Of a stretch of DNA of 64,000 bases, positions 35,986 to 39,396 are shown one piece after another (positions within the stretch are counted from its first letter, which is position 1; each line of letters opens with the position of its first letter). The notes beneath the pieces were generated by a model that searched no databases, was not told where the DNA came from, and saw only the letters and a list, made by a program, of their open reading frames with translations. Position numbers and translations under genes: made by a program. This stretch comes from an uncultured delta proteobacterium (GTDB lineage Bacteria; Myxococcota_A; Polyangia; Fen-1088), in the NCBI GenBank assembly GCA_963796685.1, contig CAWCMR010000025.1, positions 1,504,001 through 1,568,000 of the forward strand, given 5' to 3'.

Positions 35986-36778
35986 GATGGGAACCCTCAA
36001 AGGGTTCCCAAACCCTCCCGCGCTCTGGCGGAGCCAGGCGAGGGCGAGGGCGAAGCCCGAGGTGGAGGTAGGGTGGGCAGGCGGGTCCCGAGGCCCGGCT
36101 CCGCCAACGCGGAAGATGGGAACTCCCCCTGAAACCACCTCTGAAACACCTCGCCCCGCGCAGCGGGGAGAGGTCGCCGAGCGCAGCGAGGCGGGTGAGG
36201 GGTAGTCACCTTTCACGCCAGAAGGATCCGGTTCTCGCTCCTCACCTTGTGGTGCCCCTCACCCTGTCCCTCTCCCCGGCTGACGCCGGGGCGAGGGGAC
36301 CTGCCTGTTGGATCCCTCCACGAGGACGCGATCTTGTGGAACCGCCCGAACGCCGTCTCGTGCCGAGCGCAGCGAGGCGGGTGAGGGGTAGTCACCTTTC
36401 ACGCCAGAAGGATCCGGTTCTCGCTCCTCACCTTGTGGTGCCCCTCACCCTGTCCCTCTCCCCGGCTGACGCCGGGGCGAGGGGACCTGCCTGTTGGATC
36501 CCTCCACGAGGACGCGATCTTGTGGAACCGCCCGAACGCCGTCTCGTGCCGAGCGCAGCGAGGCGGGTGAGGGGTAGTCACCTTTCACGCCAGAAGGATC
36601 CGGTTCTCGCTCCTCACCTTGTGGTGCCCCTCACCCTGTCCCTCTCCCCGGCTGACGCCGGGGCGAGGGGACCTGCCTGTTGGATTCCTCCACGAGGACG
36701 CGATCTTGTGGAACCGCCCGAACGCCGTCTCGTGCCGAGCGCAGCGAGGCGGGTGAGCATCTGTGTTCCTAGTCAAGG

Positions 36779-37729
36779 TCAAATCTCCGTGGTTTGCCAG
36801 CGCGAGTTAGAGCGCAACATGGCGTTGAGGATGGTGAGCAGCTTGTGCATACAGGCGACGATGGCGACCTTCTTGAGCTTTCCTGCGGCGACTAGCCGAG
36901 CGTGGAATCTGGCGATGACTGGGTTGAAGCGTATGGCAGCTAGGGTGGCCATGTAGAGGACGTTGCGGACTTCGGTGCGGCCGCCCCAGATGATGCGGCG
37001 GCCGCGCAGGGTGCCGCTGTCCCGGTTGAGTGGAGCAACACCGATGAGGGCTGCGATCTGCTTGCGGTTGAGGGTTCCAGTCTCAGGGGCATGGGACAGG
37101 ATGGTGCGAGAGAGGACGGGGCCAGCTCCTGGAACGCTTTGGATGATGTCGTCCTTGGCTTTCCAGACCGAGGAATTGCCGATGGCCGTGTCGATGTCGT
37201 TGTCCACCTCGTCGAGCTGCTTTTCGAGGTAGGAGATGGTCCTGCGGATGGCCCTCTGCACGCGCTTGGAGGGAGGGTCAGCGCTGAGACGGTTTTTCTC
37301 GGCAGTGATCATGTCGACCACCTGCCTGCGCCTGGCGAGAAGGGCGGCAAGCTCCTGGGTCTCTGCGTCGACAGGCGGGCGGACGGGTGGCCGTATTCGT
37401 TCGGCGAAAAGAGCGATCATGGCGGCGTCCAGGGCATCGGTCTTCGCGAGACAGCCGTTGGCCTTGGCGAAGTCGCGAACGCGTCTGGGGTTGACGACGA
37501 CAGCGGGCAGGTTGGCAGCGAGGAGCGCCGCAAGCACGCGTCGTTCGAGTCCACCGGTGGCCTCAAGAACGATGAGGGTGACGTTCAGGGCGGCCAACTC
37601 TTTGCAAAGAGCGCGCACCGTGTTGTCTTGATTGGGGGTGGACCAGGCTCTTTTGGCCGGCAAGACATGGACGTCGAGCGTGGCCTTGGAGACGTCGATA
37701 CCTACGAATGTGTCAGCTGTTGGTGTCAC
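36779..37729 (-). CDS. IS110 DEDD bridge recombinase
   Basis: GIDVSK, LEATG, KTDALDA, SVPGAG, GVAP..RDSG; GTG start with AAAGGAG RBS. Confidence 0.95.
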
Positions 37730-37739
37730 GGGCTCCTTT

Positions 37740-37995
37740 CGCGAAGGACTTCTGCTCTTGGTATGCCCAGCCTTGCGGAGTATGCGGGCTCGAGGCCCTC
37801 TCATCTGTTCGGGCTGCTTGTGAAAGTCGACACGACGACCCTCGCTCACCCACGGTCTTTGTGACCTGAGGGGCATCGGTCTGTCGTGCCGTTGAATCTC
37901 GTCGTGCTCCTTCGCCTTTGGGGGCGAGCGTAGCCCAGCTTTGCTGGGCGAAGCGAGGGGGGACCGGGGGACTGCGAGCGAGAGCGAGCCAGTCC
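37740..37995 (-). ncRNA. Predicted IS110 bridge RNA (ends approximate)
   Basis: Internal loop carrying GAUGCCCCU and GGGUGAG (target guides); second region carrying ACAGAUG and GCAAG (donor guides), matching the element's ends. Confidence 0.8.
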
Positions 37996-39396
37996 CCCGT
38001 AAGATACAAGGGGTAGTCACCTTTCACGCCAGAAGGATCCGGTTCTCGCTCCTCACCTTGTGGTGCCCCTCACCCTGTCCCTCTCCCCGGCTGACGCCGG
38101 GGCGAGGGGACCTGCCTGTTGGATTCCTCCACGAGGACGCGATCTTGTGGAACCGCCCGAACGCCGTCTCGTGCCGAGCGCAGCGAGGCGGGTGAGGGGT
38201 AGTCACCTTTCACGCCAGAAGGATCCGGTTCTCGCTCCTCACCTTGTGGTGCCCCTCACCCTGTCCCTCTCCCCGGCTGACGCCGGGGCGAGGGGACCTG
38301 CCTGTTGGATCCCTCCACGAGGACGCGATCTTGTGGAACCGCCCGAACGCCGTCTCGTGCCGAGCGCAGCGAGGCGGGTGAGGGGTAGTCACCTTTCACG
38401 CCAGAAGGATCCGGTTCTCGCTCCTCACCTTGTGGTGCCCCTCACCCTGTCCCTCTCCCCGGCTGACGCCGGGGCGAGGGGACCTGCCTGTTGGATTCCT
38501 CCACGAGGACGCGATCTTGTGGAACCGCCCGAACGCCGTCTCGTGCCGAGCGCAGCGAGGCGGGTGAGGGGTAGTCACCTTTCACGCCAGAAGGATCCGG
38601 TTCTCGCTCCTCACCTTGTGGTGCCCCTCACCCTGTCCCTCTCCCCGGCTGACGCCGGGGCGAGGGGACCTGCCTGTTGGATTCCTCCACGAGGACGCGA
38701 TCTTGTGGAACCGCCCGAACGCCGTCTCGTGCCGAGCGCAGCGAGGCGGGTGAGGGGTAGTCACCTTTCACGCCAGAAGGATCCGGTTCTCGCTCCTCAC
38801 CTTGTGGTGCCCCTCACCCTGTCCCTCTCCCCGGCTGACGCCGGGGCGAGGGGACCTGCCTGTTGGATTCCTCCACGAGGACGCAATCTTGTGGAACCGC
38901 CCGAACGCCGTCTCGTGCCGAGCGCAGCGAGGCGGGTGAGGGGTAGTCACCTTTCACGCCAGAAGGATCCGGTTCTCGCTCCTCACCTTGTGGTGCCCCT
39001 CACCCTGTCCCTCTCCCCGGCTGACGCCGGGGCGAGGGGACCTGCCTGTTGGATCCCTCCACGAGGACGCGATTTTGTGGAACCGCCCGAACGCCGTCTC
39101 GTGCCGAGCGCAGCGAGGCGGGTGAGGGGTAGTCACCTTTCACGCCAGAAGGCTCCGGTTCTCGCTCCTCACCTGAAGCACCTCGCGCTGCGAAGCGGGG
39201 AATGTCCCGGCTGACGCCGGGGCGAGGGGACCTGCCTGTTGGATCCCTCCACGAGGACGCGATCTTGTGGAATCGTTCGAACGCCCCTCGCGCCGAGCGC
39301 AGCGAGGCGGGCAAGGGCACGGTCTGTCGTGCCGTCGAATCTTGTCGTGCTCCTTCGCCTTTGGGGGCGAGCGTAGCCCAGCTTTGCTGGGCGAAG

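Follow-up and report, generated by a model that had tools for sequence, protein, structure and literature searches.

Is a tandem array that is rich in target sites for a mobile element, and that has received a copy of it, a product of that element or simply a place where it landed? The question is raised by a 64-kb stretch of DNA (the window) from an uncultured delta proteobacterium, in which ten tandem copies of a 186-bp unit (36176-39317) are split by an insertion sequence (IS) of the IS110 family. An earlier note on this sequence had read the repeats as a landing array for a bridge RNA-guided IS110 that the recombinase might also amplify or rearrange. The landing array stood up to analysis and the amplification or rearrangement did not. 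Our reading is that the array is probably a recently amplified cluster of repetitive extragenic palindromic (REP) elements, similar to bacterial interspersed mosaic elements (BIMEs), and that it served the IS110 element as a passive landing site.

Anatomy of the array and its target sites

Tandem Repeats Finder (TRF) reported a period of 186 on both sides of the IS, with 3.1 copies and 99% matches at 36176-36757 and 7.0 copies and 96% matches at 38009-39311. In a repeat search the start-to-start spacing of the units was 186 nt everywhere except for one step of 1439 nt. As 1439 nt equals 186 plus 1253, this is a single array interrupted by a 1253-bp insertion, and deletion of 36758-38010, which removes the IS and one AG copy of the core, made the 186-nt register perfect again. 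Just three of the 186 positions vary among units 1-9. Units 1, 2, 5 and 9 have C at position 139, where the rest of this group have T, and positions 155 and 158 each have one singleton variant. The order previously read from the sequence (C,C,T,T,C,T,T,T,C,C) is exact at position 139, with the C of unit 10 included. Unit 10 has diverged (86-88% identity) and has no plus-strand site. At the place of its terminal half-site, the sister genome G002 reads GGGCAAGGGG without interruption. All ten units have the same orientation, none being inverted.

Every one of units 1-9 carries two motifs 62 nt apart, A on the minus strand and B on the plus strand, so that the description of a 186-bp tandem array with two opposite target sites per unit was correct. 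Within the window the motif CCCCTCACCC is confined to the array, where it occurs 18 times, as nine plus-strand B motifs and nine free A sites on the minus strand (GGGTGAGGGG on the plus strand). With the site occupied by the IS this makes 19, in agreement with the earlier estimate of about 19 targets. DNA folding placed a REP hairpin, CCCTCTCCCCGGC-TGAC-GCCGGGGCGAGGGG, immediately 3′ of each B site.

The genome to which the window belongs (G000) is a 7.3-Mb draft in 26 contigs of up to 2.1 Mb, 88.6% complete and with 6.5% contamination. It contains 183 free copies of CCCCTCACCC, compared with at most 22 for any of 30 shuffled motifs and 11 for the reversed motif pattern. Tandem arrays hold 66 of the 183 free sites (36%), and the array studied here holds 18 of them (9.8%) in 1.9 kb. 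Six other tandem arrays in this genome also bear the motif, with periods of 75-435 bp; an IS copy lies inside or at the edge of four of them, and a C11 array has two inverted sites per 180-bp unit.

When the genome was searched with one unit, full-length matches were found only within the array, and among 41 genomes searched the full unit was confined to G000; neither G001 nor G002, the two sister genomes with the IS, has it. Parts of the unit are more widespread. Outside the array there are 36 dispersed matches to unit positions 1-56 and 11 to parts of 79-177, and positions 79-185 constitute a dispersed 107-nt element in G001 and G002. The unit is therefore best read, from these matches, as element A (1-56), a 22-nt linker and element B (79-185), with the shared motif in opposite orientation in the two elements. 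Both elements are dispersed in the genome in both orientations.

We sorted the 183 free sites into context classes by the 8 nt 3′ of the motif. This gave 54 sites of class A (CACCC-GCCTCGCT), 29 of class B (TGTCCCTC), about 32 of class C, 24+5 of class D, 14 of class E and scattered others. Most free sites are followed by a hairpin of the form CCTCTCCCCGC-loop-GCGGGGCGAGG. In the DNA fold, element B has an imperfect hairpin of 12-13 bp, and the usual 3′ hairpin of element A is present in the array version only at unit 1. These are short, GC-rich, palindromic, extragenic and highly repeated REP-type elements with regular spacing and alternating orientation, and the suggestion that the array is BIME-like is borne out by the two opposite elements per unit. 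A REP-associated nuclease was also sought: the REP-associated tyrosine transposase (RAYT; PF01797, Y1 transposase) gave no match in this 88.6% complete genome, and a control search matched 6 of 14 reference genomes.

BIMEs of Escherichia coli bind IHF, gyrase or Pol I. REP clusters are described as regularly spaced REPs in alternating orientation (PMC2817692, PMC3333891). Like the BIME-2-type clusters and the REPINs portrayed in these and a related report (PMC2817692, PMC3333891, PMC3116915), the array is an extragenic, alternating tandem of REP-type elements whose sub-elements exist in dozens of dispersed copies. Unlike them, it has a long unit (186 bp) in near-identical copies, more like a young minisatellite, and it differs from BIMEs in the RAYT result for this genome.

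The bridge RNA and its natural targets

The IS begins with TGTATCTT and ends with CACAGATG, and terminal inverted repeats are absent. G000 has six intact copies, the one in the array among them, that are 100% identical to one another; a 2075-bp group II intron splits a seventh. CT is found at both junctions in all seven, the insert being 1253 bp (1251 bp plus the core), and each copy reads in the IS sense NCCC-CT, element, CT-CACCC. Four of the insertions lie in class A contexts (CACCC-GCCTCGCTGCGCTCGGC), one in a class B context (CACCC-TGTCCCTCTCCCCG) and two in class C contexts (CACCC-TAGCCC). The IS of the sister genomes is 99% identical to this one, and one copy in G002 occupies the B site of the 107-nt element. 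The rule nnnNCCC-CT-CACCC held for 15 of 15 fully flanked copies, seven from G000 and eight from G002/G001; CCC-CT-CACCC was invariant and position −4 was G in 13 of the 15. The occupied site of the array is the only insertion in its own genome with A at this position. The IS is currently active. The closest named records for its recombinase are metagenome-assembled genomes titled delta proteobacterium, Polyangia and Myxococcales.

The target rule can be compared with the predicted bridge RNA of the IS left end. In the target-binding loop, GATGCCCCT, comprising the left-target guide (LTG) and the core, and GGGTGAG, the right-target guide (RTG), stand on either side of a conserved small hairpin. 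Alignment of six homologues revealed that the scaffold is kept, with compensatory stem variants (CGCGGC/GCCGCG and CTCGGT/GCCGAG), and that two guide segments vary. The guides of three related IS110 elements match their own flanks: CTAACC-CT-CTCCC in G015 is matched by TCAACC-CT and GGGAGAG, CAAACC-CT-CCCGC in G010 by the RTG GCGGGAG, and CCTCGGC-CT-CTCCC in G009 by ATCGGC-CT and GGGAGAG. Because the guides co-vary with the flanks in these three elements, the bridge-RNA reading is sound, and the target assignment is well supported. The motif common to at least five REP context classes is the sequence that the bridge RNA targets, with NCCC as the left target (LT), CT as the core and CACCC as the right target.

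The donor side of the bridge RNA is less complete. A candidate left-donor guide (LDG) in G010, AACAGCTT, matches the right end of that element (ACAGCTT), as the putative LDG listed in Table 1 matches the right end here. A search for a right-donor guide gave no clear match to TGTATCT. Rfam likewise gave no match to any bridge-RNA family, and an Rfam sX15 match within the IS (29.4 bits against a threshold of 55) was set aside as sub-threshold noise.

It had been claimed that the plus-strand B site matches the left-target guide better than the site actually used. The counts are right: GGTGCCC-CT (36251-36259) matches at 8 of 9 positions and the used site, ACTACCC-CT, at 6 of 9. However, the better score may carry little weight, because the first G of the guide is a scaffold position that is invariant in all six aligned homologues and because positions −7 to −5 are mostly unmatched in nature. 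Six of the seven insertion sites in G000 have LT mismatches at 3 or 4 of 7 positions, most of them at −7 to −5. Natural usage suggests that only (G)CCC-CT-CACCC matters.

The work cited for insertion of IS621, another IS110-family element, into REP elements of E. coli is reportedly that of Choi et al. 2003. The corresponding background statement of the earlier note is in print: IS621 inserts under bridge-RNA guidance, and 144 of its 173 mapped insertions are in REP elements (PMC11208160). As described in that report, IS621 shares with the present IS a recombinase with DEDD and Transposase_20 domains, the CT core, natural targets in REP elements, a non-coding left end with a target-binding loop whose LTG is identical to the left target and whose RTG is complementary to the right target, and tolerance of distal LT mismatches (PMC11208160). 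The present element differs from IS621 in its organism, in guides for NCCC-CT-CACCC, a motif common to at least five REP context classes, in being known from sequence alone, and in an extra 85-nt module with two hairpins in its left end.

This module (IS-sense 3-88; 37921-38006), about 85 nt long, also stands alone as a dispersed element in related genomes (L066, L067 and L068, and many loci in G012, G020, G022, G015 and G013). There are 13 matches in G012, about 10 of which span the module, and about 10 of 11 span it in G020. Its hairpins show compensatory changes, and the related IS of G009 is without it. The IS may have captured a small repeat of separate origin, or the module may represent a remnant class.

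Related IS110 elements in other genomes, L061 (G015), L062 (G010), L064 (G008) and L060 (G009), have 65-69% DNA identity to this IS and are aimed at other REP families (AACC-CT-CTCCC and AAACC-CT-CCCGC). A REP of the AAACC-CT-CCCGC family, GGGTTCCCAAACCCTCCCGCGCTCTGGC, also occurs in the window at 35988-36030, just 3′ of rlmH. The junction of right end, CT and left end would read TTGACT, a 17-nt spacer and TATCTT (36758-36800 plus 37995-38008), a plausible circle-junction promoter. A promoter and terminator scan of 35900-41700 gave no promoter-like sequence and two terminator-like sequences, both within the IS and below the shuffle mean.

Origin of the array and competing explanations

The array lies in the spacer between the rlmH-like and dnaJ-like genes, the length of which varies among relatives. 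In G001, G004 and G012 the two genes are about 45 bp apart and in G010 about 190 bp; the distance is about 3.3 kb in G002 and 5.6 kb in G000. Read from the left, the G000 spacer contains single REPs, then the array with the IS, then a decayed solo left end of this IS, into which a group II intron has inserted. The G002 spacer contains a different tandem, 192 bp x2.1 and built on element A, together with an unrelated element that has long terminal inverted repeats. The latter insertion (L075, G002:C16, reverse-complement about 920-3560) is about 2.7 kb long with terminal inverted repeats of about 60 nt. Judged from this comparison, the array is evidently a recent, lineage-specific expansion in a spacer that has been accumulating repeats and mobile DNA.

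We propose that two dispersed REP-type elements, A and B, became joined in opposite orientation to give the 186-bp unit, and that the array would have grown in a spacer that became a dump for repeats and mobile DNA in this lineage. The likeliest route of growth would be unequal exchange driven by homology, or slippage during replication, between the 27-nt A half-sites that border the unit as direct repeats. A copy of the IS would have entered the A site at the start of unit 4 once the array had formed. The array probably predates the IS, because both flanks of the IS share the C/T unit variants and because the IS is present once rather than in every unit. The insertion itself is likely to be recent since all copies of the IS are identical. 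Under this proposal the array would have no host function, and in itself it appears ordinary, a young REP minisatellite that is incidentally rich in targets.

Alternatively, the IS110 recombinase could amplify or rearrange the array, for example by half-match recombination of target-like sites on sister chromatids or of an IS junction with a neighbour, so that arrays and IS would co-evolve. We consider this unlikely, and we are just as doubtful of the broader form in which the recombinase grows and homogenises the tandem REP arrays of the lineage through target-like half-sites. The routes may be a CT-core crossover between same-orientation sites on sister chromatids, or one between an IS junction and a neighbouring site. 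Several points weigh against a passive landing site. Five of the seven IS copies are in or beside motif-bearing arrays, as compared with 36% of the free sites (one-sided binomial P=0.063), and all five have tandem units on both sides or directly abutting the IS. A preprint reports half-match recombination for IS110 elements (10.64898/2026.08.31.748434), and recombinase-linked local expansion exists elsewhere: another describes tandem non-coding units beside IS110 transposases (n=468) with boundaries that keep matches to the left donor (LD) only (10.64898/2026.08.14.744561). The CT core also lies within the 27 nt common to both ends of the array; as the shared 27 nt include it, a core crossover would be indistinguishable from homologous exchange, the product being identical. 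Finally, the copy number of the array is taken from the assembly alone.

What speaks against the recombinase is the make-up of the units and the distribution of arrays. Donor half-sites at repeat boundaries are given as the signature of recombinase-linked tandem expansion (10.64898/2026.08.14.744561). No LD or right-donor half-site with at most 1 mismatch is present in the unit; with both strands considered, neither ACAGATG nor TGTATCT finds a match closer than 2 mismatches in 7, or than 3 in 9 when the core is included. The array resembles the expanded loci with partial circles of that preprint in that an IS110 adjoins tandem non-coding units and that partial derivatives reuse one authentic terminus (10.64898/2026.08.14.744561). 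In those loci the boundaries keep LD-only matches and the units belong to the growing element (10.64898/2026.08.14.744561), whereas the units here are host REP elements with target sites, lack a donor half-site and are in register on both sides of the IS. No unit is inverted although each of units 1-9 holds inverted sites, and 79 of the 88 tandem arrays in G000 with a period of at least 40 are without the motif. Comparable homogeneous arrays were also found where the IS was not. G021, from another genus of the same family (9.3 Mb, 10 contigs, 462 motif sites), has motif-bearing arrays of 117 bp x6 (98%) and 178 bp x2.2 (for example, L087 555-1258), and neither PF01548 nor the IS recombinase had a match in this 83% complete genome; at that completeness the absence of IS110 is not proven, a further point on the side of the recombinase. 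In the sister genomes G002 and G001, only one of eight IS copies abuts an array. The enrichment of IS copies in arrays is not significant (P=0.063, n=7), and a claim of significance was dropped as a result; occupancy of arrays is roughly proportional, and the value suggests mild enrichment at most. The array, its copies collinear and without donor half-sites, is thus better accounted for as a REP cluster on which the IS landed.

The array or its copy number could also be an artefact of assembly. Public metagenome data (20 runs, all as assembled contigs) were available, and four of the runs were compared with the window. Their contig pieces cover the IS, the intron and some REP pieces, and none of those listed spans or covers the array interior, where depth was 0 in five bins (36404-36604 and four bins in 38213-38815) and at most 8.28 in the other two. 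This nil or low contig depth could be held against the array, as could the draft state, incompleteness and contamination of the genome, but contig depth of this kind weighs neither for nor against it. The assembly resolved seven identical 1.25-kb IS copies and several other long arrays within contigs of up to 2.1 Mb, the units of the array are not identical but carry an irregular C/T pattern and singletons, and the IS interrupts the array in perfect register. Taken together, these features make an artefact quite improbable.

A host-selected decoy that diverts IS110 from harmful places would fit the concentration of free sites in the array and the landing of one of the seven IS copies there. 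However, the other 165 free sites are in the same dispersed REP-type repeat families, so that a decoy role is unnecessary and the array would add little protection. None of the 40 relatives searched has the array, not even the two with the same IS, and we regard such a role as very unlikely. Least probable of all is a repetitive protein (186 nt being 62 codons) or a structured RNA. One frame is indeed open across units (ORF 38060-39214), but this open reading frame (ORF) has no Pfam match and is interrupted by the IS, its GC content by codon position is 0.78/0.61/0.62 compared with 0.73-0.83 at the third position of four real genes, and the sub-elements are dispersed in both orientations. The fold z-score is only −1.62, and the only Rfam matches are sub-threshold (Antizyme_FSE, repeated in every unit at 27.8-29.9 bits, short of the threshold of 40). 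Inspection also ruled out a CRISPR-like or TIGR-like array, because the units are near-identical and without variable spacers. A recently amplified REP cluster that acted as a landing site remains the explanation that we favour.

Solo left ends, the group II intron and the meaning of the locus

The decayed left end in the spacer is 138 nt long, in two pieces, and is cut at the LTG-coding stretch. Solo left ends of about 140 nt that end exactly at LTG-coding DNA were found at several loci in G000 and G002. At C25:1109421 and C8:212939 the join is a perfect site, GATGCCC-CT-CACCC; those at C25:234099 and in the window are degenerate. Contigs of two public runs (X1 and X3) also contain the solo-end joint. 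In G002, a full IS stands directly after a solo end at L078 and again at a contig end (L082), as expected if a regenerated perfect site is re-used. These findings suggest that guide-coding DNA is itself a left target, such that solo ends regenerate a perfect site and then recruit new insertions. Recruitment by solo left ends is better supported than the growth of arrays by the recombinase, the arrangement being visible at the right edge of the array as well as in G002. Chimeric flanks of the solo left end in the window were considered as a sign of rearrangement and dropped, because on comparison with G002 the flanks may simply have diverged.

Solo left ends fit the partial and modular circles of other IS110 elements. 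As far as they are described, ISPpu9 and ISPpu10 of Pseudomonas putida resemble the present IS in having about seven IS110 copies, all in REP-type intergenic repeats, in having solitary sub-element modules (ssr9 there, the 140-nt solo left end here) and in a stem-loop beside the target (PMC12288879, 10.64898/2026.03.19.712850). Unlike theirs, the solo module here is a 5′ end cut exactly at the LTG-coding stretch, and it is known from its sequence. A search of the literature on self-targeting or truncated IS110 left ends, with preprint supplements outside its scope, found no description of a solo end cut at the LTG.

The group II intron that interrupts the solo end has 11 copies in G000 (including C11:75849-77923) at 99.9-100% identity. 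For ten copies the 5′ flank is visible, and in nine of these a hairpin, either REP-like or of an IS left end, lies a few bases 5′ of the intron. Two copies share one insertion position within the IS left end (IS-sense 55/56) and are antisense to the recombinase. The features of the locus are collected in Table 1.

Table 1. Coordinates of features in the window and of related loci elsewhere. Positions without a prefix refer to the window; C and L prefixes denote contigs and loci.
Feature	Position	Strand	Basis
Left border gene, rlmH-like SPOUT methyltransferase	35254..35985	+	Pfam PF02590, E=2.6e-36; orthologues in 5 same-genus genomes
Array, left part (units 1-3 and first 24 nt of unit 4)	36176..36757	+	TRF; register analysis
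First free A site	36193..36202 (others start 36379, 36565, 38190, 38376, 38562, 38748, 38934, 39120)	-	motif positions
First free B site, GGTGCCC-CT-CACCC	36251..36264	+	9 free B sites in array
CCCCTCACCC motif starts of B sites	36255, 36441, 36627, 38066, 38252, 38438, 38624, 38810, 38996	+	motif positions
Tenth A site, occupied by IS	36757/38009 junction	-	motif positions
IS110-family element, 1251 bp, CT core on both sides (AG on plus strand, 36756-36757 and 38009-38010)	36758..38008	-	genome copy comparison
Recombinase ORF, GTG start after AAAGGAG	36779..37729	-	PF01548 DEDD_Tnp_IS110 (2.8e-23), PF02371 Transposase_20 (9.7e-17)
Bridge-RNA region of IS left end	37740..37925	-	alignment of 6 homologues with compensatory stem changes
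Putative LDG, AACAGATG	37802-37809	-	matches right end ACAGATG
Target-binding loop	37831-37888	-	alignment; closing stem CACGAC/GTCGTG
RTG, GGGTGAG	37845-37851 (IS-sense 158-164)	-	sequence coordinates
Inner hairpin of target-binding loop	37854-37866	-	conserved in alignment
LTG and core, GATGCCCCT	37869-37877 (IS-sense 132-140)	-	sequence coordinates
Array, right part (remainder of unit 4 to unit 9)	38009..39102	+	TRF; repeat search; register analysis
Diverged unit 10, with another REP-like stretch in place of the B site and terminal degenerate A-variant half-site GCCGAGCGCAGCGAGGCGGGCAAGGG	39103..39317	+	repeat search; register analysis
Old solo IS left end, distal piece (IS-sense 56-138, 96% identity), fused to terminal A-variant half-site	39315..39396	-	repeat search; IS copy comparison
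Group II intron, 2075 bp, inserted in solo left end	39397..41471	+	Rfam RF02001 (3e-15), RF00029 (5.7e-7)
Intron reverse transcriptase (RT)/maturase ORF	39676-41340	+	RVT_1 and GIIM domains
Solo left end, proximal piece (IS-sense 1-55, 100% identity), abuts flank ...GGGAACCC-CT	41472..41526	-	IS copy comparison
Right border gene, DnaJ-domain ORF	41575..42099	+	PF00226, E=9.7e-10; directly downstream of rlmH in relatives
Other motif-bearing arrays	C11:98633-101739; C15:369160-371754; C21:64109-67747; C25:1054865-1056625; C25:1059718-1060879; C11:48513-50254		tandem-repeat survey
Other solo left ends in G000	C25:1109421-1109562; C25:234099-234236; C8:212939-213081; C1:32343-32444		IS copy comparison
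Solo left ends in G002	L078, L082, L084, L085		search of sister genomes

REP targeting by IS110 elements was already established, and this locus is a clean natural example of it from an uncultured soil lineage. A single bridge RNA is aimed at a 10-nt motif common to several REP families and thereby has 183 free sites at its disposal, and the related elements of neighbouring genomes have been re-aimed at other REP families. The 15 natural insertions reveal the guide positions that matter, a natural specificity data set for the engineering of bridge recombinases. If the recombinase did grow the arrays, a transposon would be manufacturing its own landing pads; G021 is a useful natural control for the dynamics of REP arrays. 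The growth of one spacer from about 45 bp to 5.6 kb proceeded by layered REPs, tandem amplification, an IS, an IS remnant and a group II intron, and the solo left ends provide a natural case of guide-coding DNA behaving as a target half-site.

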